Virus record (IMG/VR): IMGVR_UViG_2740892370_000017 | Location: 1-23,984 of that record | DNA from: a virus | Lineage: Duplodnaviria > Heunggongvirae > Uroviricota > Caudoviricetes | Length of the DNA stretch: 23,984 nt | Direction: 5' to 3' (one strand) | Shown: piece by piece, positions 1 through 23,984 of the stretch | How positions within the stretch are numbered: the stretch's first letter is position 1 | Layout of the letters: each line of letters starts with the position of its first letter | The notes under the pieces: model-generated | What the model saw: only the letters and a program-made list of their open reading frames with translations | What the model was told of the DNA's origin: nothing | The model's database searches: none | Position numbers and translations under genes: made by a program

Positions 1-273
1 ATGAAGCAATGGCGAGATGATATTAAACGGTTCTTTGCAACTTACTTCATGATTAATTACGAAACAGGAATGCTTGAATGGATTGATGGTGGAGAGGTTA
101 AGACAAGAGATGACGCTTACGGTAATCCAATGATTCGTTATGGCACTCGTGATTATTATGTGAAATATGTCATCTGGTTTTTGCATCATGAAGTTCAGGC
201 AACTAAAAAAATTATCTTCAGGGATGGTAATAAAAGAAATTGCCACCCAAACAATTTACTACTGGAGATTTAA
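1..273 (+). CDS. HNH endonuclease-like protein, C-terminal part (5' end cut by window edge)
   Basis: ORF runs from window start; C-terminal motif ...WFLHHE...IFRDGNKRNCHPNNLLL resembles the H-N-(N/H) core of HNH nucleases (H..DGN..N...NL). Stop TAA 271-273 overlaps next ATG (TAATG). Confidence 0.45.
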   Translation: MKQWRDDIKRFFATYFMINYETGMLEWIDGGEVKTRDDAYGNPMIRYGTRDYYVKYVIWFLHHEVQATKKIIFRDGNKRNCHPNNLLLEI

Positions 274-473
274 TGCTATGTATTAAATTCGAATATTTGA
301 CAGATAAAATGATTAAGCATGTATCAGACCTGCTCATCAAAGAAGATGGTTTCGGTGATGTTTGCAATCCAAAAGATATCTTCATTCACGCCACCAGCCC
401 AAATGAAACACTGAAAACAGCAGTTACAGCGGAATGGTTTGAACGAAATAAAGTAGAATTAGGCTATTGGTAG
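273..473 (+). CDS. hypothetical small protein (about 66 aa)
   Basis: ATG at 273 overlaps stop of upstream ORF (TAATG, translational coupling); track ORF 240..473 is same frame with an earlier, less likely start. No recognisable motif. Confidence 0.35.
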   Translation: MLCIKFEYLTDKMIKHVSDLLIKEDGFGDVCNPKDIFIHATSPNETLKTAVTAEWFERNKVELGYW

Positions 474-652
474 TCCGAGACTTTAAGAGAAATTAGAAAA
501 ACAGCTTCTCAGACGCTCTCAATCGCATTCTAACGCAAAAAACTATCTTATTTTAGGGTGGGTAATACCACTGTACAGGCTACCCCTGAAAAAGACTGTT
601 TAGCTCGTTACAGAGCGATTGAGGAGGTCTGGTAAAAAGGAGATTTTAGGAA

Positions 653-976
653 ATGAACAATTACGAATTACAGATTTTCGTTGATAGCGACACCGCTATG
701 ATGATTCAGGCTTTCACTGATGTAGGTGTTAGCATTGACTTTGACAGGCTGTTAAGGCTAATGGCTGATAACTCAGAAACAATTGAAGATTTTATTCAGT
801 CGGTGGAGTTTAACGAGCCTCGAATGATGCTACCAATTAAAGACAGCAACATGAAAAGATTGGTTATCGAGCAAACGAACAAATACAGCATTAGCCCTGA
901 AAGATATCTCAAGGCAGCTATAGCAATTTTGTACGCTGACAATATTTTGGTGACGGATTCGAAGGTGGTGCATTAA
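653..976 (+). CDS. hypothetical protein (107 aa)
   Basis: ATG 653 preceded by AAGGAG (637-642); AT-rich codon usage consistent with neighbours; no recognisable domain. Confidence 0.5.
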   Translation: MNNYELQIFVDSDTAMMIQAFTDVGVSIDFDRLLRLMADNSETIEDFIQSVEFNEPRMMLPIKDSNMKRLVIEQTNKYSISPERYLKAAIAILYADNILVTDSKVVH

Positions 977-1077
977 TGGGCTTAATAATTGCTTGGACGG
1001 CTTTGGGTTTATTTGTTGGTTGCTGGGTAGGTAATACGGTAAATAAGAATTGATGTTACCAATCTGTTAAAAAGCTG

Positions 1078-1106
1078 TTGACAAATAACCTTGAGCATGA
1101 CATAAT
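1078..1106 (+). promoter_or_regulatory. candidate sigma70 promoter (TTGACA -17 nt- CATAAT, with TG upstream of -10)
   Basis: TTGACA at 1078-1083, 17-nt spacer, CATAAT at 1101-1106 with TGa immediately upstream (extended -10 like). Followed by hairpin AGAGAG-aattg-CTCTCT at 1116-1132 and a leader of about 295 nt before the ATG at 1408. Confidence 0.45.
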
Positions 1107-1407
1107 TTTAATTATAGAGAGAATTGCTCTCTTATTTCTTTCAACAATTCCATCTACATCTAGGGATAGTTATTCTGAAAGGTGCAATGCTTTTCGCTAC
1201 ATGACCTCTTATATAACCTGAGAGGTCATCTCGAAAAGTACTCTTGTTCATTCATTATTGAATCCTTTGCCCTTCACAGAAATGTTTAGGGCTTTTTCAG
1301 TTTTTAAAAGCACACTTGGCAGGTTCTTGTTCAGTCAGACTCTTCACCTCTGATTGCTGAGTGTGCTTCTATAAATTGAAATAACAAATAAACTAAGAGG
1401 TGAACGA

Positions 1408-2109
1408 ATGATTCGAGATGAACATGAAATGATTATCGAAAACAAACCAAGTGCACTTGATATTCACGAATTAAGTTTGCGTGAATCTTTTGATAGAGCT
1501 TGGCGGGAATCACACGAAGTAAAAAGAAGTCCTTATATTCCACCAGAACCACTCGAGATTCCAAGAGTTGAAATTGATTTTTCGATGAATGAGGAATGTG
1601 AGCTTGATTTGAAACTGAAGCTACAACGCCGATATTTCCAAGCTATTAAAGACTCTCAAGAAGCAATGAGAAGTGTTTACGAGAAAATTCAGTCCAAGCT
1701 TGAAGACGAAATTGACGAAATGGCTATTTTGATGGAGCTTCAAACCAATTCTTATGCTTATTTCTCTCGACTAGACCGTGATGGTTGGGGGTATGACCCT
1801 GTAGAGATTGGTAAAGTGATTGCAGATTTACCAGAAGGTCAAAGAGTTGTTCGTACAGAAAGAGCTGTCAGAGCACCACATCGACTGTCTCTAATTGTTG
1901 CTGATAAATCACAAGCTGAGCTTGAAGAAATTGCCAAAGAGAAACTGATGAAAGCAAGAGAAAATGAGATTAATTTGCTGAAATCAAGACTGGCTAAGCT
2001 GATTAGTGACCATCAAAAAATCGCTAAGGAATACAAACAAGAGCTTGCACAGATTAGTAGCTTCAATGACTTTTTGAGTGTTCCACGAGAATTTAGTAAA
2101 ACTATTTGA
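1408..2109 (+). CDS. hypothetical protein (233 aa), charged and probably coiled-coil-rich
   Basis: ATG 1408 with strong SD AAGAGGTG 5 nt upstream; long ORF; C-terminal half rich in E/K/L heptad-like stretches; no recognised catalytic motif. Confidence 0.6.
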   Translation: MIRDEHEMIIENKPSALDIHELSLRESFDRAWRESHEVKRSPYIPPEPLEIPRVEIDFSMNEECELDLKLKLQRRYFQAIKDSQEAMRSVYEKIQSKLEDEIDEMAILMELQTNSYAYFSRLDRDGWGYDPVEIGKVIADLPEGQRVVRTERAVRAPHRLSLIVADKSQAELEEIAKEKLMKARENEINLLKSRLAKLISDHQKIAKEYKQELAQISSFNDFLSVPREFSKTI

Positions 2110-2131
2110 TTATGCATATGTGAGGTGATGA

Positions 2132-2347
2132 ATGATTGATTTGCAACAGCGTTATGAAACTATTAAGTCGGCTTGTGAAAACTTAAAGTTACAAGCCAAT
2201 CCAGCCTTAAGAATTAAAAGCAAACGTCAAGTTATCACCTCACACAAACCAAAAACACGCAAGATTCCAAAGTGGTGTATTGACCGTATCCCTTCCGATG
2301 CTCAAATCATAGGTGAAACGGAATTACATTATCTTGTCAGACATTAA
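2132..2347 (+). CDS. hypothetical small basic protein (71 aa)
   Basis: ATG 2132 with SD GAGGTGA; 22-nt gap after upstream gene; K/R-rich. Confidence 0.5.
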   Translation: MIDLQQRYETIKSACENLKLQANPALRIKSKRQVITSHKPKTRKIPKWCIDRIPSDAQIIGETELHYLVRH

Positions 2348-2374
2348 AAAAGAATTGGTTGGGTAAAAATCAAC

Positions 2375-2420
2375 GGGAGAGATTATCTGGATGGCAATCT
2401 AGGTAACTCTCCTTTTTTTT
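2375..2420 (+). terminator. candidate intrinsic terminator
   Basis: GGAGAG (2376-2381) ... CTCTCC (2407-2412) stem followed by T8 (2413-2420); loop is long (25 nt) so the structure is only moderately convincing. Lies between the 71-aa gene and the tape-measure-like gene. Confidence 0.4.
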
Positions 2421-2455
2421 GTATATGAACGCTTAACAGAGGTGAAATATGAACA

Positions 2456-4531
2456 ATGGCACAATTTAAAGTTGATAGTTTTATCGTTGAACTAGGCTTC
2501 AGCGAGAACGTTATTAAGGGCTTGCAAAGAGTTGAAAAGGCAGCTTTGCAGTCAGCACAAAGAATTGAACGTAATTTGAATAGGGCGTTTAAGGTCGATA
2601 CCAAGCAACTTGACAGCAATCTGACAAGTTCTTTAGGGCAACTTGAAAGGAAGTTTAATAAGACCTTTGACAAGATTGAGCAGCGTTTTAAAAACACTAG
2701 AGCGTTTAAGATTAAAACGGAAATTGAGGATACTTTAAAGCCACTTAGACAGCCAAGACAGCCACGAATTAGCGGAAACAGAGCAATCACAGCAGCTTAT
2801 TCAGCTAATATGACCAAGCTGAAAGGTCTTAACCCAATTGTCGAGAAATACATTAAGAGTCAGTTTTACGCATTAAGTAGTAAATCCAAGACACTTGGGA
2901 ACGAAGCTTTTAATCGTGAGTTAGCAAAGTTAAATCAAAATCTACGTGAAACACTTTCTAAGTTTAACAAGACCACCAGCAAAAATAATCACAGTGAAAA
3001 GGCTTCGAATGGTCTGGATGTATTAGCTACAAGTGCAATCAAAGCAGGTACAGCCATTTATAGTTTTCAGACAGCCTTAGAAGCTTACAGGCGGATTATG
3101 GAGATTGGTCTGAAAAAAGAAGCATCACAACGAGCGGCACAATTCGTTTTAGGTGATGAAGGTGCTAAACGAGCTACAGAATTTGTTAAGAATCTTGCTA
3201 ATAACACTGGTGTTGACCAGATTGAAACATTAAGCAGTTTTGCTAAGTTTTCCGCTGGTGCTGGTGATATGGATGCAGGCCAGAAAGAATCCTTATTTTC
3301 TAATGTGATTGGTACATCCAGATTAATGGGGCTAAGCACTGATGAAATTAACGGGATTTTAAAAGCTTTTGAGCAGATGGCGAGCAAGGGCAAGATTCAA
3401 GCTGAAGAATTACGCGGTCAGTTAGGGGACAGAATGGCAGGTGCTTTTCAGTTATTTGCCAGAAGTCTTGGGATGACTACGGAAGAATTAGACAAGGCCA
3501 TGAAAGACGGTAAGGTTCTTTCTAAAGATGTTCTTCCTAAAGTATCCGCTGAAATGGGAAGGATGATTGATAAAGCTGGTGGATGGGAAAAGATTATTAA
3601 CTCTACTCAGACGCAGTTAGGCCGCTTAAGTAATTCATGGAATAATAATCTGGCCTTAATGTTCGATGGTTCACAGGAAGGTCTGGTAGATTTTACAAGG
3701 TCACTGACTAATTTACTTAATTCACTAGGTGGTCAATCTAAAAATCTTGGTGAACATTTTGGCGACCTGATGAAAAGCATGTCAAACGGTATTGATGATT
3801 TAACCACGATTAGCTACCGAGTGCAGGGATTCTTTGACAGAGTGACCCTTGCTTACAGAGAATTAAATGACACTCAAAAAGCTGTAGCTGATGGTATCGC
3901 AAATGGCCTGTTAAGTGCATTAAAGGGACTTGCTGGTATTGTCGCTGTAAGGTCTGGTATTGGTGCTGTAGGTGGTATCTGGAACTTAATTAGGGCTATT
4001 TCCACGCTTGGAAATGTAGCAAATACAGCAGCAGGAAGAATTAATTCACGTTCCGGTAGTGTTGAAGGTGGTAAAGGAAAATTATCTGTAGCTGATGCAA
4101 TTACCAAAGTAATGATTGTCGGTATGGCAACTGATGTGATTAACTCCATTGTTAAACCGTTCTATGAACGTCAGATGAGTAAGTCAGATAATCCAATTGA
4201 CAAAGTTGTAAGGTCAAAGGTGGAACCTACAGACCAAGCATTGTCTGGTGACATGAACTCTTTAGCCGCTGTTTTATGGGCTATGGTTCAGGGCAAATCA
4301 AAAGATGTTCCACAGTTTTCACCTGAAGCATTAAATAATCTGAAAGGTCGAGTGGAAACATTCACACAAGATTTAAAGGTTATCAAGCCGTCAGTAAATA
4401 TTCAGCCTCAGACAATCAATATCACAACTCAGACGGTACTTGATGGAAAGGTTATTGATGAAAGAACCACATCGCATATTAATCGTATGCAGGAAGATAC
4501 CTTGATTAGCTCAGCTTACCCAGAGGAATAA
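2456..4531 (+). CDS. phage tail tape-measure-like protein (691 aa)
   Basis: Long, largely helical ORF; central segment ...GLSTDEINGILKAFEQMASKGKIQAEELRGQLGDRMAGAFQLFARSLGMTTEELDKAMKDGKV... matches the pattern of the conserved tape-measure core (G.S.D...AL....G.I.AEEL..QL.DR...A...A...G.TTEEL...M.DG.V) as I recall it from lambda gpH-type proteins; Gly-rich hydrophobic stretch LKGLAGIVAVRSGIGAVGGIW typical of such proteins. SD AGAGGTG upstream. Confidence 0.55.
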   Translation: MAQFKVDSFIVELGFSENVIKGLQRVEKAALQSAQRIERNLNRAFKVDTKQLDSNLTSSLGQLERKFNKTFDKIEQRFKNTRAFKIKTEIEDTLKPLRQPRQPRISGNRAITAAYSANMTKLKGLNPIVEKYIKSQFYALSSKSKTLGNEAFNRELAKLNQNLRETLSKFNKTTSKNNHSEKASNGLDVLATSAIKAGTAIYSFQTALEAYRRIMEIGLKKEASQRAAQFVLGDEGAKRATEFVKNLANNTGVDQIETLSSFAKFSAGAGDMDAGQKESLFSNVIGTSRLMGLSTDEINGILKAFEQMASKGKIQAEELRGQLGDRMAGAFQLFARSLGMTTEELDKAMKDGKVLSKDVLPKVSAEMGRMIDKAGGWEKIINSTQTQLGRLSNSWNNNLALMFDGSQEGLVDFTRSLTNLLNSLGGQSKNLGEHFGDLMKSMSNGIDDLTTISYRVQGFFDRVTLAYRELNDTQKAVADGIANGLLSALKGLAGIVAVRSGIGAVGGIWNLIRAISTLGNVANTAAGRINSRSGSVEGGKGKLSVADAITKVMIVGMATDVINSIVKPFYERQMSKSDNPIDKVVRSKVEPTDQALSGDMNSLAAVLWAMVQGKSKDVPQFSPEALNNLKGRVETFTQDLKVIKPSVNIQPQTINITTQTVLDGKVIDERTTSHINRMQEDTLISSAYPEE

Positions 4532-4620
4532 ACAATGTTAGAACTACTAATATTTATTGCCACACATGGCAATCTATTAATCTTTATCTAGTATGACGAT
4601 TCAACTATGAATAGTCGAAT

Positions 4621-4675
4621 GCTACGTGAAATCTTCTGAACAGATACCAACATCAAAAATTAGATTTCACGTAGC
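4621..4675. repeat. 14-bp perfect inverted repeat with 27-nt spacer
   Basis: GCTACGTGAAATCT (4621-4634) and AGATTTCACGTAGC (4662-4675) are exact reverse complements; not followed by a T-run. In the 173-bp gap between the tape-measure-like gene and the 254-aa gene. Confidence 0.6.
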
Positions 4676-4704
4676 TCACGCTTAACAGAATAGGAATAAC
4701 AACA

Positions 4705-5469
4705 ATGTTTGACACAAAGCAAATTAGATACTCAGGTAAAGATGGTATCTATTTTCACCTTAGAGATAATGTAGAATCTTTTCTTGCCTTAACAGCTACT
4801 GAACAGATGGACTATGACTCACCGATGATGGTGACAACTCAGGCTATGCAATCGGGGCAAACTATCACTGATAATGTTCAGAGAGCACCTAAGACCATCT
4901 CTATCAGCGGTGTTGTAGTGGTTGATTCGACGGGTTCAGTTCTATTAACCAGACAGGGGCAACTTGTAGAGACCTTTATTTCTACGGTTGAACAATGGCG
5001 AGACCAGAAGCAAATCATCACTATTGTTTGTAGAGATGGAATAGCTATCACTGATAGTATCATTACTCAGTTTAAAGCGAGTAAAGAGCATACCATTGCT
5101 AACGGTCTTCGTATTCAGATGACCTTCCAAGGTGTAGAGTTTCGTTCAATCGTAGGTCAGACTGATATTTCGGCTGCAACTGGCAAGACCGCTACCACGA
5201 ATGATGGTGGTGCTACCAGCAAAAAGAATACAGGGAACACTACAACGAGCCTTGGAAGCCCTATGCTGACCTGTAAAGAGCTTTTTAGCTATTCGGCAAG
5301 TGAGTTATCAGATGAAGCGCTAAAAGCCCGTGTAACGTGCTCTAAGAGCGTTAGCGTTAAAAATGGTGAGAGCACCTTCACAGCCTCAGCTAATGAGCAA
5401 GCTTCAAAGGTGCTTAAGTCGGGTAATGCTTTACGGAAGTTTAGTGTGAATCCTAACAAGCGCTACTGA
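4705..5469 (+). CDS. hypothetical protein (254 aa), Ser/Thr-rich C-terminal half
   Basis: Clean ORF immediately after tape-measure-like gene; weak SD; could be a tail-associated protein by position only. Confidence 0.55.
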
Positions 5470-5483
5470 CGATAGAATCTCAA

Positions 5484-7007
5484 CTATATGATAACCTCAT
5501 CAACATCTATTAAACCCCTCTCAGTGACTTCAGAAAGCGACTGTATAGCCTCTGTAACGTTGTCTGAGGGGGTTTCTGTTATTGGTAGGTCAATTAACTT
5601 ACCGTTGTGAAAAGTTACTTTGCAGCGACGTTTAGCGGTATTTAAAACTACCTCTTTAACAGCACTTTTGATTATCAGTTGTGCTTCAATCCTTCCCGCC
5701 TTTGTAGTCAAGTCACAATCAGACAAACAACCCACATCAATAGATTTAAGGCGTTGTGTCTCCTTCTCGATATCCGCATCAACCTGTGATAACTCATTCT
5801 TTAGTTGTTTTAGTTTGCTGGTAATAGCGGACAAGTCTTCAATTTCAAGTGATAGTTGTACCAGCTTTTCTATATTGCTTGAGATGTGTTCACGGTGTAG
5901 CCTCAACATATCTATGGTATTCGTCGTATCGCTATCAAATCGGTCAAGACGAGATAGCAGGGTAAGCAATGTACCATCGGTTTGCTTACGTGACAGCCCT
6001 TTAGCACTACAACGGTTTTCATTACGAAGAGGACAACGATAAATCCCGTTTCTTGTATCGCTAAAGCCTGTGATAATCAGAGCATGACCACATTCAGAAC
6101 AACGGATAACACCTTTAAAGAGATTCACACTCAATGGTTTACCTGAAACAGGTTTTCGACCGTAACGAGAATGTGATAGTTGTTGAACTTTGTAGAATGT
6201 TGTTTCATCTATAATTGCAGGATAATAACCAGCTATCTCCTCACAGCCTTTAGGGGTGAAGTAACCAATTACAGAGCGATTCTTCAGAAGGTCTTGCACT
6301 GAGGTTTGACCAAACTTACCCGGCTTATACTGGCTCATCGACTGGTGACCTTCATCATTAAGAGTTCTGACAATCTCCCAGATAGACTTACCCTCTAACC
6401 GTAGCTGAAAGCACCTCTTCACAGTCTCCACTTTCTCAGGTATCACAGAGAAGCTTTTACGGTCATCATTAAGCTTAAGCCATGCAGGACAACGTTTAGA
6501 AACTTTGATACCAGCTTTAGCAGCCTCTTTCTTGGCATCCCATGCAGCCTGTATACGCTCAGATTTACGCAAACTCTCCTCATGCGCCCTTTGCATTATC
6601 AAAATGCTTTTAATCAGAGCTAGCGGGTCTCTAAGAGATTCCCTTGTGTAATGTTCACCATCGGACAAGGTGACCACATCTACACCAGAACGCAGGATGT
6701 TTCTTAATAGCTCCGAAGCAATATCTATGTCTTGACGTGACAAACGGTCTAAACTCTCGATTAGTAGTGTATCACCAGCTTTAACAAGCCCTTTCTCGAT
6801 AGCGGTTAAGAAGTCACCTAAGCCACCTTTCAAGTGCTTACCAGTGAACCCACTCACCCCCAAATCACGGAAGGATAAATCTTGGTCAAGGTAGTACTCA
6901 GGATGAGCCTTAAGCCAGTCATTAACCATCTTAGACTGTCTGCGTAGTGAGTCGCCTTTGGCTTGTCGCTCAGAACTGAATCTGATGTAGCTGATTACAC
7001 GTTTCAT
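5484..7007 (-). CDS. large serine recombinase (resolvase/invertase-type catalytic domain plus recombinase and zinc-ribbon regions)
   Basis: N-terminus MKRVISYIRFSSERQ... has the Y.R.SS..Q catalytic serine motif of serine recombinases; 507 aa with Cys-rich CSECGH...YRC segment and C-terminal coiled-coil, typical of large serine integrases. ATG 7007 with SD GAGGTG. Confidence 0.85.
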   Translation of the reverse strand: MKRVISYIRFSSERQAKGDSLRRQSKMVNDWLKAHPEYYLDQDLSFRDLGVSGFTGKHLKGGLGDFLTAIEKGLVKAGDTLLIESLDRLSRQDIDIASELLRNILRSGVDVVTLSDGEHYTRESLRDPLALIKSILIMQRAHEESLRKSERIQAAWDAKKEAAKAGIKVSKRCPAWLKLNDDRKSFSVIPEKVETVKRCFQLRLEGKSIWEIVRTLNDEGHQSMSQYKPGKFGQTSVQDLLKNRSVIGYFTPKGCEEIAGYYPAIIDETTFYKVQQLSHSRYGRKPVSGKPLSVNLFKGVIRCSECGHALIITGFSDTRNGIYRCPLRNENRCSAKGLSRKQTDGTLLTLLSRLDRFDSDTTNTIDMLRLHREHISSNIEKLVQLSLEIEDLSAITSKLKQLKNELSQVDADIEKETQRLKSIDVGCLSDCDLTTKAGRIEAQLIIKSAVKEVVLNTAKRRCKVTFHNGKLIDLPITETPSDNVTEAIQSLSEVTERGLIDVDEVII

Positions 7008-7057
7008 TGTTCACCTCACCTAATAACCCCTAGATTGTATCGTTTTAGATGGTGTAT

Positions 7058-7516
7058 TTAAACGTGTCTAATAAAAATCACCCGATTAACGCCGCGCTGA
7101 TGTAAACCGCGATTAAGAGTTTGTTCCTCTTCCCCTTTGGCGAAAAACTGTGGATGGCGGACTTCCACACCATAATTAAATTCGCCAGGGAGAGAATCGA
7201 GAAAATGCCAAAGCGCAGGCAGCTCCCGTGGGCCGAATGTGGCAGGCAGTTGCAGCCAGTATTGCCCAATGCGCGGAGCCAACGGTGACATGCGGGTCAA
7301 AAATTCAGTCACTAAATCATCGCAATGTCGTAATGCTGCCTGATGCGAAATGGTCGCCGGAAACTTAAAACAGAAGCGGAAGTCATCTGTGGTCTGTTCA
7401 CGCCAGCGCAGGACAACCTCGGGTTTCGGCAGGGCGTAAAGCGTGGTGTTGCCCTCCACGCAGTTAACATGACGGGTATTGAAGGCTAACCCACTGATTT
7501 TAATAAGTCTCTTGTG
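7058..7516 (-). pseudogene. yecE: remnant of a chromosomal DUF72-family gene (probably yecE), truncated at both ends
   Basis: GC-richer ORF wedged between two integrase genes. Track start at 7459 is GTG and the frame stays open upstream to a stop at 7517-7519 with no ATG, overlapping the integrase 3' end. At the other end the ORF terminates a few codons after the composition switches to AT-rich sequence near 7075. Identification as yecE is from memory. Confidence 0.45.
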
Positions 7517-8799
7517 TCACTTTGGTGACCATGGGACATCATTGGGACATAATCTGCCAGCTTCTGATTCAGCATTGCGATCTGTTCTGCATTGCTGTCA
7601 GTCATCCATGCTCCGTATACATTGAACACCATCTGGGCACTTGCATGACCCATCTGGCTGGCAATGAAGCTTGGATTTGCTCCGGCAGATAATGACCAGC
7701 ACGCATAAGTGTGTCGTGACTGGTATGCCTTTCGATGCCTGATGCCTGCACGCTTAATAGCTGATTCCCATGAGTCGCCAATGGAATCTACCTTGTAGAT
7801 AAAACCTACCTGTTTGCTTTTTCTAACCACCTGGGGGTTAAATACGAAAGTACATTCATGATTCACTGAACGTCCATATTCACGTAGTTGAACCTTGATG
7901 TGGTGCTGCTTACCCAGTCTTGTCATTTCAGCCTGATTTTTCAGGACACTGATAGCGGGCTGGATAAGATGTATAACCCTGTTAGTACTTGCTTCAGTTT
8001 TAGGTAGAGTGAACTCATCGAGTTTCGTATAATTGCGCCGGATAGTAATTGTTCCTGCTTTCAGATCGATATCTTCCCAGGCCAGGGAGACCAGTTCACC
8101 ATGACGCATTCCTGTGTACACAGCCAATGACCACAGGTTTTTTGTCTGCTGATGTCGGCAAGCATCTATCAGGCGAATAAATTCGTCACGAGTTAGCGGA
8201 TCTGGCTCTGCCCTGGCTTTTTTAAGAGGCTTAATTCCCTCGAAGGGATTTGCTTCTAAGTAACCGTGATCTGCAGCAAACTGAAACATTCCAGCGATTG
8301 TCGTCATGTAATAATTTACTGTGACAACGCTTCGTCCTTTTACCGGAGCCTTACCTTTTGTTGGATTTTGGTGTCCGGTCAGCAAATCTTTCCTGATATA
8401 CAGCAATTCCTCTTTGGTCACCGTTGACACCAGTCTGCTACCTCCAATTTTCGGAACCATCGTTCTTGCAACGGATTCATAACGATTGAATGCATTTGCA
8501 GAGATTTCCATTCGTTTCAGATCCAGCCACTTTTCTTCAAGTTCTTTCACCGTAATTTCTTTTTTACTTACCCCAAAAGCCTGAAGGTTAGGGGAGTCAG
8601 GGAACTGTGCAGCATAATCAAAGTTTCCTGTGCGGATGGCAAAACATACCGATGTCCGCAGTTCTCCAGCGATCTTCCTGTTCTTGGCAGTGTCAGGGAC
8701 ACCAAGATTTTCCCTGACACGTTTACCTTTAAAATTAAACCAGATGCGCAATGTGCCACCGTGGTTTTCGACGCCTGTTGGATATTTGACTTTATCCAT
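7486..8799 (-). CDS. int: phage tyrosine integrase (lambdoid/Rac-like family)
   Basis: 437 aa; N-terminal ...PTGVENHGGTLRIWFNFKGKRVRENL... resembles the arm-binding domain of Rac/P4-like integrases; C-terminal catalytic residues present (R in ...GMRHGEL..., H-x-x-R in ...RHTYACW..., Y in ...VYGAWM). Confidence 0.9.
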   Translation of the reverse strand: MDKVKYPTGVENHGGTLRIWFNFKGKRVRENLGVPDTAKNRKIAGELRTSVCFAIRTGNFDYAAQFPDSPNLQAFGVSKKEITVKELEEKWLDLKRMEISANAFNRYESVARTMVPKIGGSRLVSTVTKEELLYIRKDLLTGHQNPTKGKAPVKGRSVVTVNYYMTTIAGMFQFAADHGYLEANPFEGIKPLKKARAEPDPLTRDEFIRLIDACRHQQTKNLWSLAVYTGMRHGELVSLAWEDIDLKAGTITIRRNYTKLDEFTLPKTEASTNRVIHLIQPAISVLKNQAEMTRLGKQHHIKVQLREYGRSVNHECTFVFNPQVVRKSKQVGFIYKVDSIGDSWESAIKRAGIRHRKAYQSRHTYACWSLSAGANPSFIASQMGHASAQMVFNVYGAWMTDSNAEQIAMLNQKLADYVPMMSHGHQSDTRDLLKSVG

Positions 8800-8854
8800 T
8801 GATACCTCCAGACGCCCAAGAGCGAAACGAGCTTACATACTTCATGGCATTAAA

Positions 8855-9091
8855 TCACCCAGGTTGTTTGTTTTTCATTGAAGCGACCCAGGCATCTATT
8901 GCTTTTCTGTTATACATACATTCGCTGGATGGCTTTGGATTACCATCTGGTGATACGTGAATATACTCTCTTCCTACCATCCAGCATTCTTTCCGGGCTC
9001 GGAGAATTGTGCCTGGTTTGAGCCCGGTAATTGCGATAAGAACGCTTTCACAAACCCATTCATTGGGAGCCAGTTGAATCACATTGCTCAT
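8855..9091 (-). CDS. xis: excisionase-like protein
   Basis: 78-aa ORF immediately upstream of int on the same strand, the canonical xis position; sequence resembles lambdoid excisionase-like small proteins as I recall them. Confidence 0.6.
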   Translation of the reverse strand: MSNVIQLAPNEWVCESVLIAITGLKPGTILRARKECWMVGREYIHVSPDGNPKPSSECMYNRKAIDAWVASMKNKQPG

Positions 9092-9936: not shown

Positions 9937-10267
9937 TTATTTAACCTGGATAAATGGTGTATTGGCACCACTGGTCATGTATTGCGGCAGCGTGCCGTTC
10001 CATTTATTGATGGCTTCCAGCTCCACAACACCGGGGTTCTGACGCAGAGCTTCACCGCGTAAACGAATAGCATCGGCTTCAGCCTGGGCTTTTGTGCGAA
10101 TCGCATCAGCCTGTCCAGTAGCGACCAACCCCGACCACTTCACCGACGCCTTTGTCGTCGTCAAGTTTGTTGACTTTGATGCCCACATTACCAGGCTCAA
10201 CACGATCACAACCGACAAGGCCAATGGCAGGCAGAACAATGGCTAAAGAAAAAATAATTTTTTTCAT
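9937..10267 (-). pseudogene. lipoprotein gene remnant, frameshifted (N-terminal signal/lipobox in one frame, SPFH/band-7-like C-terminal tail in another)
   Basis: Frame A from ATG 10267: MKKIIFSLAIVLPAIGLVGCDRVEPGNVGIKVNKLDDDKGVGEVV... (signal peptide plus LVGC lipobox) stops at 10106; frame B (track 9937..10239) continues ...VATGQADAIRTKAQAEADAIRLRGEALRQNPGVVELEAINKWNGTLPQYM..., which resembles the C-terminal tail of prohibitin/HflC-type proteins. Total is far shorter than an intact protein of that type. Confidence 0.4.
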
Positions 10268-10512: not shown

Positions 10513-10905
10513 TCAGAATGGTTTTGTTGCCATCAGTTCGTAATATCCGGCGCTCCATGTGTCATATTTTCTGAACCATTTTTCTGTATACTGTTTCCTG
10601 GCGATGAGTCTGCGCAGTCGTCTGATTGTTCGCTGGTGTGCGCGGGTATACTCTGTGGTTGATTCTCCACGTTTCCATATCTCATTCCCGTTGAAGATAA
10701 AACGCTTGTCAGGATAGCGTTGCCGGAATCCTGAACGTTCAAAAGCGCGGGTGGTCATAAAGAATGCCAGGTAACGAATTGCCGTTTTTCGGGTGAGGCA
10801 TTTTTTTGTTCTTCCGTGGCGTGTTACAAAAAATAACGGGCCGACGGGTGTATCATGTTTCTGTAATGCCTGGTCAATGGCGCTGGCGGTGCGGTTGTCG
10901 ATCAT
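10513..10905 (-). CDS. hypothetical protein (130 aa), basic
   Basis: ATG 10905; ATGA overlap with upstream track ORF; no recognised motif. Confidence 0.5.
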   Translation of the reverse strand: MIDNRTASAIDQALQKHDTPVGPLFFVTRHGRTKKCLTRKTAIRYLAFFMTTRAFERSGFRQRYPDKRFIFNGNEIWKRGESTTEYTRAHQRTIRRLRRLIARKQYTEKWFRKYDTWSAGYYELMATKPF

Positions 10906-11091
10906 TTCTTTATTTCTCCCGAATAACGTTCATGACTCATTACTTCCCAGTTCCGGCCGTCGCCTTTCGATAACAGCCGCCAGCAACGGTTAACCTTCAG
11001 ACTGAGATATCCGGTGCGCTGTATCCGATGCGGAAATATCCGTCGGCATCGGTACAACAACAGGACCTGCAATGCCTGCCGGTGGATCCGC

Positions 11092-11307
11092 TCAGGAATG
11101 CGTGTTGCTGTTAATGCCACCGGTTTCCTCCTGAGCAGGTGCTGTTATCTGATACCCCGCTCTTTCTGCCAGCCGTATGAATGTATCCATGCTGGCAATC
11201 AGCTCGCCATCGCGGACTTTGCAGACACCTGTGACTTGGCCATTTTCAATTGTCATAACGATCTGCACTTTTTCGCGCACAACAGATACAGGGGATAAAT
11301 TAGCCAT
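11092..11307 (-). CDS. hypothetical protein (71 aa)
   Basis: ATG 11307 with SD GAGGA 8 nt upstream; protein-like composition. Confidence 0.5.
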   Translation of the reverse strand: MANLSPVSVVREKVQIVMTIENGQVTGVCKVRDGELIASMDTFIRLAERAGYQITAPAQEETGGINSNTHS

Positions 11308-11432
11308 CAGTTAATTCCTCCACTGGTATATTTTTCTTTCGCGTAATCAATAACCTCTTGAAAAAGGTTGTCTATAATTAACTTTCCGGTTTCAGTCAGG
11401 TATTCAGTATGTTGATTAATCCCGATAGCATT

Positions 11433-11666
11433 CTAGTATGCAGTGTGGATTTCGGTTTCACCCTCCACCCGGCCCAATTCACCACGGGTAATACCTTCGA
11501 AGCGTAACAGCAACTGGTTTATAAACTGTTCAGTTATTTCTATAGTCGCAATGTTCCCATCCGGAAGGTCAACAATAAGCAGATTACCACCTGTTTTACG
11601 TTTTATTCGATGGAGTGCCGCAACAGCTATACGGCGACGATATGTATTAATGGGTTCATATGCCAT
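11433..11666 (-). CDS. hypothetical small protein (77 aa) with Arg-rich N-terminus
   Basis: ATG 11666; N-terminal ...TYRRRIAVAALHRIKRK... is Arg-rich; sits just below a 200-bp AT-rich intergenic region where a leftward early promoter would be expected. An N-like antiterminator role is speculation. Confidence 0.45.
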   Translation of the reverse strand: MAYEPINTYRRRIAVAALHRIKRKTGGNLLIVDLPDGNIATIEITEQFINQLLLRFEGITRGELGRVEGETEIHTAY

Positions 11667-20467: not shown

Positions 20468-20833
20468 ATGCGTGATATTCAGATGGTTCTGGATCGTTGG
20501 GGTGCATGGGCGGCGAGTGATAGTTCTGGGGTAGACTATTCGCCTATAGCTGCTGGGTTTAAAGGGCTTCTTCCCTATACAAGCAAAACACGTCAGGCTT
20601 GTTCAGATAGTGATGCATTAATTATTGAAGGTTGTCTTGCTCGTCTAAAGCAAAAAAGACCTGAAGAACACTCGCTTCTTGTTGCCCATTACCTATACGG
20701 TATCTCTAAAAGAAAGCTCGCCAAAGCTCGTAAAAAGGATGAGAAACTAATACGCATTGAGATACAGATGGCTGAGGGTTTTGTTGAAGGCTGTCTCTCA
20801 ATGCTTGATCTTTGTCTGGAAATGGACCAATAG
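20468..20833 (+). CDS. Q: late-gene antiterminator Q-like protein
   Basis: From ATG 20468: MRDIQMVLDRWGAWAA...IAAGFKGL...C.DSDALIIEGCLARLK... matches the N-terminal signature I recall for E. coli lambdoid Q-family antiterminators (MRDIQMVLERWGAWAA...); position after the replication/nin genes is canonical. Confidence 0.6.
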   Translation: MRDIQMVLDRWGAWAASDSSGVDYSPIAAGFKGLLPYTSKTRQACSDSDALIIEGCLARLKQKRPEEHSLLVAHYLYGISKRKLAKARKKDEKLIRIEIQMAEGFVEGCLSMLDLCLEMDQ

Positions 20834-20845
20834 ACTACCAGAATA

Positions 20846-20880
20846 GAAACTGCCGCTCAGCTTTGCGGATCGGCAGTTTC
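20846..20880. terminator. 10-bp inverted repeat hairpin between convergent Q gene and minus-strand operon
   Basis: GAAACTGCCG (20846-20855) and CGGCAGTTTC (20871-20880), 15-nt loop, 13 nt after the Q stop and overlapping the last codons of the minus-strand gene 20857..21279; no clear T-run on either strand. Confidence 0.4.
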
Positions 20881-21279
20881 TGATGGTGTAATGTTACGCG
20901 CAGATGTTTCGAGTATAGATTCCCTTCCGATTGATACCAAAATTTCGATTGTTCTTGCTTTAGCCTGCATCAATGTTGATTTTATTTCAGGACTTAAGTG
21001 GTCAGATCGTAACTGCTTCTCAATCTCAGCCAAATCACGCTTGCATTTTGCTCTTTTGGCTGCGTCCTCTGGAGATTCGAAACCATGCCTCGAAATAAAC
21101 CAATTCATGACGTAAGTTAAAGTTGCCGCAACACCCGGTACCAATGCGTAGGCTACAGTTCGCCACACGCTATTAGGGTCGGTTAAAATCGCGCTAACAA
21201 GAACACTTAGAATTGCTCCCCAGCCACCAGTTGAAAGGGTAGCTTTTCCTGTACTTAGACCTTTAGTTTGAGAATTCAT
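20857..21279 (-). CDS. small membrane protein with two predicted transmembrane helices and charged C-terminal tail (140 aa)
   Basis: Hydrophobic segments WGAILSVLVSAIL and TVAYALVPGVAATLTYVMNWFI followed by K/R/E-rich tail; ATG 21279 overlaps stop of upstream gene (ATGA). Last gene of a three-gene minus-strand operon. Confidence 0.6.
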   Translation of the reverse strand: MNSQTKGLSTGKATLSTGGWGAILSVLVSAILTDPNSVWRTVAYALVPGVAATLTYVMNWFISRHGFESPEDAAKRAKCKRDLAEIEKQLRSDHLSPEIKSTLMQAKARTIEILVSIGRESILETSARNITPSETADPQS

Positions 21280-21524
21280 TTTCGTTTTGAATTCTCCGCA
21301 ATTGCCTCTTCAATGAGGGTTGTTAGCATTTTTCCCTTTTTACTTGGAACTTTTATTACTAGCGTCTTAGTCACTCCGGATTCTTCATCGTGATATCGGA
21401 ATTCGAAGACTTTTGTAGGGAATAGTCGACGCCAAAGCAAGGCTGACGCTGAATAGCAAAAACGACTAAAGGCAGGGATGATCATTATCACCCCAATCCA
21501 GAAGATCAGTTGTGCTATCTGCAT
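21276..21524 (-). CDS. small single-pass membrane protein (about 82 aa)
   Basis: ATG 21524 (MQIAQLIFWIGVIMIIPAF...) preferred; track ORF begins at TTG 21545, which abuts the upstream stop. N-terminal TM helix then charged soluble tail. Confidence 0.5.
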   Translation of the reverse strand: MQIAQLIFWIGVIMIIPAFSRFCYSASALLWRRLFPTKVFEFRYHDEESGVTKTLVIKVPSKKGKMLTTLIEEAIAENSKRK

Positions 21525-21541
21525 GTTCAGTGTCACTTTTG

Positions 21542-22411
21542 TCAAGCCTCAGCAGGGCGTTTTCGTTTTACTTTGGTTATAGCATACTTGGTTGTGGCAT
21601 TTCGCGCAGTGAAAGTTTTTATAGTTTTTAGCTCAACAACAAACAAATCTTCTTTTGTAAAACTGATGATTCCATTTTGAACTTGGTGTATAAACAACTG
21701 ATCTTCAAATGTAACAGCATGCTCCTCGCCTAAATAATCGATTCTCCAACCCTTTGTACCCTCGAAGTTGATCTGTACGAATCTAACATTGACTTCTTCT
21801 ACAGACTCTTCTTTTTCAAGTAGTGTACCTCTAGGCAGCGGTTTGATCTCTTCAGTTTCACTTCCTTCAAGACGAACGACTTCTTCGCCTTCATCATTTA
21901 GCACCTTAAATACTGCACCTTGTTTGCCGTCTAATGGTGCACGAACTACATTCACAAGGGCATCACGGACTTCAGGATCTGTTACTAACTTAGCCACTGA
22001 GTCATGGCAAACAATTTCTTCCCCTTCAAGTTCAAGAACAGATTCTTCTGTTCCTGCCCGTTTTGTTACCGAAATTACTTTCTTGCTGCCCAGTTGGCGG
22101 ATTAGTGATAATGCTGGAGCTCCAATAGCAGCCCCGGCTATCCCTGTTAGGCCAATCACTTTTGCGACGTCGACGGCATGAGGAACAAGCTCCATCATCG
22201 TATAGGATACGCCGAGTGATCCCGCTTCTGCTGGATTAGTAACCATTAACTTAACGGTTTGTTGACCGTCATTAAGTCTTTTATCAGCTGCTGATATTAA
22301 ATCTGCCATCGAACCTATGGAGATGCTTAATGTTTTGGCATCAATTTTATGCTGTGCTAATTCGTTATCCTCTGCATCGTAGAAGATCTGAAAAGAAGTT
22401 GTTTTAGTCAC
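21542..22411 (-). CDS. hypothetical protein (289 aa) with central hydrophobic Gly/Ala-rich segment and acidic regions
   Basis: Long clean ORF, first gene of the minus operon; GTG start at 22411 (uncertain); hydrophobic stretch VAKVIGLTGIAGAAIGAPALSLI; E-rich repeats; no motif I can assign. Confidence 0.6.
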   Translation of the reverse strand: MTKTTSFQIFYDAEDNELAQHKIDAKTLSISIGSMADLISAADKRLNDGQQTVKLMVTNPAEAGSLGVSYTMMELVPHAVDVAKVIGLTGIAGAAIGAPALSLIRQLGSKKVISVTKRAGTEESVLELEGEEIVCHDSVAKLVTDPEVRDALVNVVRAPLDGKQGAVFKVLNDEGEEVVRLEGSETEEIKPLPRGTLLEKEESVEEVNVRFVQINFEGTKGWRIDYLGEEHAVTFEDQLFIHQVQNGIISFTKEDLFVVELKTIKTFTARNATTKYAITKVKRKRPAEA

Positions 22412-23033: not shown

Positions 23034-23984
23034 ATGAAAAATACTGTAAAAATAAACAGTGTTGATTTAATCAACGCTGATTGCCTGCATTTTATTCAGT
23101 CCCTGCCTGATGATTCCATTGACCTGATTGTTACCGATCCGCCGTACTTCAAGGTGAAACCCAACGGCTGGGACAATCAGTGGAAAGGGGACGAAGATTA
23201 CCTTAAGTGGCTGGACCACTGTCTTGCGCAGTTCTGGCGGGTGCTGAAACCTGCAGGAAGTCTATACCTGTTCTGTGGGCATCGCCTGGCATCTGACACC
23301 GAAATCATGATGCGTGAGCGGTTTAACGTGCTGAACCATATCATCTGGGCAAAGCCGTCCGGACGCTGGAACGGGTGTAACAAGGAAAGCCTGCGGGCGC
23401 ATTTTCCGGCCACAGAGCGCATTCTGTTCGCGGAACATTATCAGGGGCCGTATCGCCCGAAAGATGATGGCTGTGAGGCGAAGGGCAGGGCACTGGAACA
23501 GCATGTGATGGCCCCGCTGATTGCTTACTTTCGTGATGCGCGCGCTGCCCTGGGGATAACGGCAAAACAGATTGCAGATGCCACAGGAAAGAAAAACATG
23601 GTGTCGCACTGGTTCAGTGCCAGTCAGTGGCAGCTGCCGAACGAAAGCGATTATCTGAAATTACAGGCCCTGTTTGCCCGGGTGGCAGAAGAGAAGCATC
23701 AGCGCGGTGAACTGGAATGGCCCCACCACCAGCTGGTGGATACGTATACGTCACTGAACCGGCAGTATGTGGAGCTGCAGAGTGAATATAAGCATCTGCG
23801 GCGGTATTTTGGTGTGACGGCGCAGGTGCCGTACACGGATGTGTGGACATATAAACCGGTGCAGTTCTATCCCGGGAAACATCCGTGCGAAAAACCGGCA
23901 GAAATGCTGCAGCAGATAATCAGCGCAAGCAGTCGTCCGGGTGACCTGGTTGCAGATTTTTTATGGGCTCAGGTTCAATGGTAA
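23034..23984 (+). CDS. N6-adenine DNA methyltransferase (DPPY motif), apparently frameshifted near its 3' region
   Basis: Motif IV ...IVTDPPYF... near N-terminus; reading frame stops at window end with ...DLVADFLWAQVQW*, whereas a shift in the T6 run at 23957-23962 reads ...DFFMGSGS..., the canonical AdoMet motif I (FxGxG). Confidence 0.75.
   Translation: MKNTVKINSVDLINADCLHFIQSLPDDSIDLIVTDPPYFKVKPNGWDNQWKGDEDYLKWLDHCLAQFWRVLKPAGSLYLFCGHRLASDTEIMMRERFNVLNHIIWAKPSGRWNGCNKESLRAHFPATERILFAEHYQGPYRPKDDGCEAKGRALEQHVMAPLIAYFRDARAALGITAKQIADATGKKNMVSHWFSASQWQLPNESDYLKLQALFARVAEEKHQRGELEWPHHQLVDTYTSLNRQYVELQSEYKHLRRYFGVTAQVPYTDVWTYKPVQFYPGKHPCEKPAEMLQQIISASSRPGDLVADFLWAQVQW

Follow-up and report, generated by a model that had tools for sequence, protein, structure and literature searches.

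A likely inherited frameshift pseudogene of an M.EcoGI/M.EcoGII-type adenine methyltransferase in the late region of a lambdoid prophage

Analysis of the window, by which we mean the whole stretch of 23,984 nucleotides studied here, led to the conclusion that its last gene is, with a probability of roughly 0.86, a genuine inherited frameshift pseudogene of an M.EcoGI/M.EcoGII-type methyltransferase, situated among the late genes of a lambdoid prophage at yecE, which we take to be the DUF72 gene beside the integrase. The initial annotation had left a choice between a frameshift pseudogene, a slipped-strand on/off switch and a homopolymer sequencing error, and it is the first of these that is supported, namely by intact orthologues with T7 or TTC-containing codons, by a fixed T6 lineage and by a motif I that lies out of frame. 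An ancestral GAT TTT TTT ATG (Asp-Phe-Phe-Met of motif I) would have lost one T, for which replication slippage in the T7 run would be the simplest route, and translation would then have continued as DFLWAQVQW before reaching a stop; the mutation would have become fixed and been inherited within the prophage lineage, where further decay appears to have begun. The methyltransferase family has already been described and the gene is already flagged as 'frameshifted' in RefSeq, and the event is an ordinary gene-killing mutation.

Inspection of the window's end bore out, in every detail, what the initial annotation had claimed for a T6 run at 23957–23962, including its coordinates, the two reading frames around it and the position of the DPPY motif. 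The run TTTTTT at 23957–23962 is the sole T run of six or more bases within 23901–23984, and the window ends with the codons ...GGT GAC CTG GTT GCA GAT TTT TTA TGG GCT CAG GTT CAA TGG TAA. The features referred to below are the following:

23034–23984, plus strand: truncated open reading frame of 316 amino acids followed by TAA (open-reading-frame list, PF01555 match at 1.1e-28, RefSeq label of an identical copy).
23136–23147, plus strand: catalytic motif IV DPPY, amino acids 35–38 (sequence, translation and alignment with solved beta-class methyltransferases).
23957–23962, plus strand: T6 run, one base shorter by deletion than the T7 (GAT TTT TTT) found in the nearest intact alleles.
23957–23963, plus strand: T_TTT_TTA heptamer created by the deletion, a putative slippery site of the X_XXY_YYZ type in the correct −1 register.
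23963–23984, plus strand: start of the −1 frame, ATG GGC TCA GGT TCA ATG GTA A.., read as MGSGSMV and containing the AdoMet-binding motif I (FxGxG).
23982–23984, plus strand: premature TAA of the zero frame, six codons past the T run and identical with the last three bases of the window.

The open reading frame at 23034–23984 encodes 316 amino acids with the C-terminus ...RPGDLVADFLWAQVQW (longer C-terminal stretch DLVADFLWAQVQW) and corresponds to the N-terminal ~88% of a gene for a beta-class N6-adenine DNA methyltransferase of the M.EcoGI/M.EcoGII family. Sequence and translation together confirmed that the zero frame reads ...DFLWAQVQW-TAA and stops at the window edge, while translation after the addition of a single T gave ...DLVADFFMGSGSMV... 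with motif I in frame, as had been proposed. It was also right to expect motif I near the C-terminus of a protein with an early motif IV, beta-class enzymes having motif IV first, then the target-recognition domain and then motif I (PMC5778455). The break falls one codon ahead of motif I, and the downstream frame holds GSGSM at the place of the family-invariant GSGST. With 14 T6, four T7 and one T8 runs in the window, the T6 run as such is unremarkable; the content of the shifted frame is not chance.

The last 3,951 bases of the window are identical to E. coli 2015C-3163 (NZ_CP027219), and the identity reaches back to ~7,060. In this identical genomic copy the −1 frame runs through 42 codons before its stop (MGSGSMVKAALALGRRAIGVELEAGRFEQTVREVQDFIVRNG-stop, ending ...QDFIVRNG), and the full pseudogene is 107 bases longer than the part inside the window, ending at what would be position 24091. 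RefSeq labels the corresponding 1,058-base stretch of NZ_CP027219 as 'DNA-methyltransferase, frameshifted', and the same 'frameshifted' label is attached to the gene in a second strain, the chicken-meat isolate 22-245 from Japan.

Profile comparison with PF01555 (N6_N4_Mtase) gave the 316-residue product a score of 101.1 bits against a gathering cut-off of 26.7, covering profile positions 1–188 of 221, and the restoration of one T raised the score to 145.1 bits and the coverage to positions 1–219 of 221. Positions 189–221 are thus left uncovered in the 316-residue product, FMGSGS being present solely in the −1 frame. The restored protein aligned with M.EcoGII over the full length at 89% identity (311 of 350 aligned positions), the reference being the sequence printed in the supplement of the SUPREM paper (PMC11551740), which was machine-read and carries a few reading errors. 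Given this identity, the window gene is, as judged by sequence comparison, an orthologue and member of the M.EcoGI/M.EcoGII group of non-specific adenine methyltransferases. Homologues were found in 2,630 of 5,426 complete E. coli genomes and also in Stx-converting and other lambdoid phages, with the top phage match being 1720a-02, a phage described as carrying an enzyme very similar to M.EcoGII (PMC5778455). M.EcoGII itself is a beta-class enzyme of 349 amino acids from an E. coli O104:H4 prophage, has the order DPPY, target-recognition domain, FxGxG, and is silent in the lysogen, its constitutive expression being deleterious (PMC5778455).

The surroundings of the gene are those of a lambdoid prophage, with an integrase at 7486–8799 adjoining the DUF72 gene and a Q antiterminator gene at 20468–20833. 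The methyltransferase gene lies downstream of Q and upstream of tRNA-Ile/tRNA-OTHER/tRNA-Arg, TerB, DUF3927 and a SASA esterase. The middle tRNA of this Ile/Arg cluster, located just past the window (4182–4263 of our 2015C-3163 locus), is annotated as 'tRNA-OTHER' with a length of 82 nt; the position is occupied by a tRNA-Arg (argN) in related prophages and is absent in strain 22-245, and the 'tRNA-OTHER' of 2015C-3163 may have degenerated or be otherwise unusual. Two reverse-strand genes at 20857–22411 (minus strand) separate the Q antiterminator from the methyltransferase, one of which is labelled in another strain as 'LAPAL motif-containing putative phage structural protein'; both are missing from this interval in related prophages and look like an inserted module. 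In the early region of the prophage, a ParE family toxin-like protein is annotated at 10902–11120 (minus strand), with no obvious annotated partner. Collinearity with 2015C-3163 is absent from position 1 to ~7060, where that strain carries cutC-torYZ-cmoAB-yecN; the window instead shows ~91–92% identity to a different phage-like element (tape measure, baseplate protein, recombinase) beside the DUF72 gene, so that the window's own genome appears to hold two mobile elements in tandem at the DUF72 site. Coverage of window positions 1–9000 reaches no more than 94% in any complete genome of the collection.

Comparison with 84 related loci (80 IMG/VR contigs together with E. coli and phage records) revealed that the site codons read GAT TTT TTT (T7) in 36, GAT TTT TTC (GATTTTTTC) in 23 and GAT TTC TTC (GATTTCTTC) in 25, and a frameshift at the site was observed in none of the 84. 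Intact alleles encode 349 or 352 amino acids and read ...DLVADFFMGSGST... through the site as DFFMGSGST. The sequence ...DFLWAQVQW, which the initial annotation had taken for the result of a broken frame, is accordingly not a conserved native end, as the orthologues continue via DFFMGSGST to their full 349 or 352 residues. The alleles closest to the window across the site region carry T7, and the T6 of the window therefore represents a one-base deletion. An intact parent of the window allele, in the form of the restored 352-residue protein, was absent from the protein collection. The downstream 164 bases are 100% identical in only six of the eight complete genomes with T6, the next best match being at 95.7%.

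Long-read assemblies often miscall single homopolymer bases, and the T6 run might on this account be a sequencing or assembly error, the true sequence being T7 and the gene intact. This reading is contradicted by the recurrence of the allele. The 38-mer containing T6 was found, identical, in eight complete E. coli genomes sequenced by different laboratories in several countries, their isolation sources being given as human, cattle, "mammal" and chicken meat. The exact 316-residue protein was found on 105 contigs (139 blocks of the collection), many of them in short-contig draft assemblies, and the placements listed belong to NCBI assemblies with widely scattered accession numbers. Moreover, all six loci fetched via the window's own protein combine T6 with the same lineage-specific downstream substitutions. 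A homopolymer sequencing error is thus effectively refuted, and we leave it next to no probability.

The second alternative, a phase-variable (contingency) switch that is on with T7, off with T6 or T8 and reversible within populations, draws on the fact that homopolymers are slippage-prone, and the change from T7 to T6 has indeed recurred in a second, very common allele (L094–L103). In this allele T6 was seen in ~10 E. coli assemblies or read-run assemblies (9–10 contigs) and T8 on two contigs, all of which may be true mutations or read errors; with 78–81 differences from the window gene and an end in ...VQR, its T6 form goes back to an independent event. However, these slip variants make up ~1% or less of the copies of an allele whose T7 form is present on at least 1000 contigs, and such a proportion indicates mutation and not a contingency mechanism, while both T6 and T8 variants are missing from a third allele found on 594 contigs. 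For the window allele, T6 is found on 105 contigs, and T7, T8 and T5 versions were absent from ~15 billion proteins. Exact site counts in complete genomes gave 588 records with T7, eight with T6 (all of them the window allele and one lineage) and none with T8, the T7 and T8 counts being taken from the 'distant' search mode. The run is also broken by synonymous TTC codons in 48 of the 84 related loci, and the tract is therefore not preserved by selection among the orthologues. Known phase-variable homopolymers, moreover, are usually 8–9 bases or longer and located near the 5' end of the gene. We consequently regard a slipped-strand switch at this position as very unlikely and the T run as a mild hotspot of mutation, like any other homopolymer of seven bases.

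To characterize the inherited pseudogene further, codons of the window lineage were compared with those of the 84 other loci, and nine window-lineage codons were found in none of them:

Upstream of the break, 310 codons: three synonymous changes; non-synonymous changes Y123H and K155E.
Downstream of the break, 42 codons: no synonymous change; non-synonymous changes T316M, T334A, L347F and stop350R.

None of the 84 other loci departs from Y123, K155, T316 or T334. The conserved threonine of motif I is T316 (GSGST; GSGTT in a solved relative), and its replacement by methionine, which is unique to the window lineage, suggests that the downstream frame may no longer be under selection, although T316M itself may predate or postdate the deletion. 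Since the chicken-meat strain 22-245 carries T6 without K155E, the latter change most likely arose after the frameshift. The T6 events in the second allele keep an intact downstream GSGST...ELET, and the intact and altered downstream frames would fit a recent event in that allele and an earlier one in the window lineage. The change stop350R (TGA to CGA, adding RNG) was also considered as a sign of decay and was rejected, intact 352-residue alleles ending in ...RNG or ...QNG being common. Elsewhere in the same prophage, RefSeq marks two more pseudogenes in the early region of the identical copy, at 9937–10267 (minus strand) and 11307–11666 (minus strand), one of them frameshifted and one with an internal stop; they fit a prophage that is accumulating damage.

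Lineage-specific non-synonymous changes have ~15 times the density past the break (4 of 42 codons) that they have before it (2 of 310 codons; Fisher p = 0.002). Free drift of the whole gene would be expected to produce a more even spread, and the downstream excess may reflect residual constraint on the truncated product, different recombination histories or small numbers. The same asymmetry could speak for a product that is still functional, in that the 316-residue protein, alone or together with a 42-residue motif-I peptide starting at the ATG at 23963, would bind DNA without methylating it or act by fragment complementation, and some gene callers do call the 42-residue frame separately. In contrast, no Shine-Dalgarno sequence precedes this ATG, the 42-residue frame carries Thr to Met and Thr to Ala replacements at invariant positions, no precedent for a split enzyme was found in the M.EcoGI/M.EcoGII family, and the numbers behind the asymmetry are small and come from mosaic alleles. 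Residual function of this kind appears highly improbable to us.

Another way in which activity could survive is compensatory −1 ribosomal frameshifting at T_TTT_TTA, which would yield some full-length 352-residue enzyme (...ADFLMGSGSMV..., with the junction peptide DLVADFLMGSGSMVK) and hence a low level of a toxic methyltransferase. The heptamer stands in the zero-frame register, is the only one of its kind in the open reading frame and is the same as that of HIV-1 gag-pol, whose U UUU UUA signal has been recapitulated in E. coli (PMC2018615). A hairpin is predicted whose core helix begins 8 nt past the heptamer, within the 5–9 nt spacing expected of a stimulatory structure; its folding energy is −35 kcal/mol when 88 nt are taken (z = −3.4) and −26 kcal/mol when the fold is limited to the 63-nt core (z = −3.2). 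Cases of a 'savior indel' with compensatory frameshifting at a low level are well recognised (PMC5009743), and the harm done by constitutive M.EcoGII expression (PMC5778455) likewise counts in favour of this reading. However, the orthologues, comprising the 84 other loci and the fetched members of the protein cluster, are single-frame, so that nothing here has evolved for frameshifting. Heptamers that work efficiently in E. coli require a ZZN codon made up purely of purines or purely of pyrimidines (PMC4066793), and UUA is heterogeneous, which by this general rule places U_UU.U_UU.A outside the high-efficiency motifs, the text of that study giving no separate figure for it. Motif I of the product would furthermore have Leu in place of Phe and Met in place of Thr, this threonine being invariant in the 84 loci.

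The hairpin, too, is predicted in all in-frame orthologues examined, and its covariation does not rise above that of shuffles. Among 28 hairpin sequences pairing was kept in 87.5% of cells, every covariation measure was matched by shuffles, and RNAalifold revealed no pair with changes on both sides. In every M.EcoGII-family allele examined, the motif-I coding region is predicted to form this 63-nt hairpin at −26 to −29 kcal/mol (z = −2.7 to −3.6); it covers 23971–23984 of the window and beyond, 3936–3998 of the NZ_CP027219 copy (L001) and the same stretch in L003, L005 and L006. In the outer helix, the codons for GSGST are paired with those for GVELE, and synonymous differences retain the pairing through wobble. 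The hairpin may simply follow from these conserved codons, and no selected RNA element is claimed. A trace of full-length product is, on these predictions, physically plausible, while nothing suggests selection for it, and we consider rescue by ribosomal frameshifting very unlikely. The more specific proposal that the change from T7 to T6 was an accidental 'savior indel', in which an HIV-like slippery site and a pre-existing hairpin tune down, and do not remove, a harmful prophage enzyme, is in our estimation quite unlikely. If it were true, a small percentage of ribosomes would restore the frame and supply a low dose of an adenine methyltransferase that is toxic at full dose, and this would be of wider interest, M.EcoGII being a widely used reagent whose toxicity limits its expression. 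Transcriptional slippage was also considered and was rejected on general grounds, the run being too short; appreciable slippage of RNA polymerase in E. coli needs runs of ~9 or more A/T.

For the frameshift pseudogene, the consequences would be as follows. The 316-residue product would retain DPPY and the target-recognition region and would lack motif I together with the last 36–39 residues, which form the AdoMet-binding site; given this loss and the architecture of the family, it should be catalytically dead. As M.EcoGII expression is harmful and the gene is silent in lysogens (PMC5778455), we infer that the loss was probably neutral or mildly beneficial to the host, with a cost to the phage only. 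One lambdoid prophage lineage, present in O103:H2 and other E. coli, would thus carry a dead copy of an M.EcoGII-type gene, and little is at stake beyond the practical point that methylome and anti-restriction predictions for carrier strains should leave this methyltransferase gene out. The case also serves as a worked example of how a fixed homopolymer frameshift can be told from a sequencing error or a phase-variable switch by public sequences alone.

Several known systems invite comparison. With phase-variable methyltransferases (phasevarions) the window gene shares a single-base homopolymer change inside an enzyme gene, whereas neither reversibility nor tract conservation was seen at the window allele. 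The 'savior indel' frameshifting at the G7 run of HSV thymidine kinase (PMC5009743) is similar in that a single-base homopolymer change likewise produced a slippery sequence, and differs in that a trans-frame product of the window gene is hypothetical. The solved beta-class amino-methyltransferases M.RsrI (1eg2), CcrM (6pbd), M.MboIIA (1g60) and 9c3u/8urk match the DPPY and motif-I lobes of an intact orthologue (E = 4e-24 to 1e-7), with DPFMGSGTT of 9c3u_A (deposited under the name 'Methyltransferase') aligned to DFFMGSGST. These enzymes are distant relatives with defined target sequences, and of the two matched stretches the window protein has only the first in its own frame.

The intact alleles of 349 or 352 residues in Stx-converting and other lambdoid phages and prophages, such as Stx2a_1447 BAT32403, WP_000935546 and WP_000935516, show 83–94% DNA identity to the window gene and share its neighbourhood of a small hypothetical gene, the methyltransferase gene and the tRNA-Ile and tRNA-Arg genes, which are followed by TerB, DUF3927 and a SASA esterase in non-Stx prophages and by stx in Stx phages; these alleles keep a single frame through T7 or TTC-interrupted codons, whereas the window allele has T6. 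M.EcoGII and M.EcoGI, orphan methyltransferases of E. coli O104:H4 C227-11, have the same layout of DPPY, target recognition and FxGxG as the window gene and are, like it, carried on a lambdoid prophage. The window copy differs from M.EcoGII in being frameshifted before motif I, with 316 amino acids in frame as opposed to 349, and in reading GSGSM in its downstream frame where the M.EcoGII family has GSGST.
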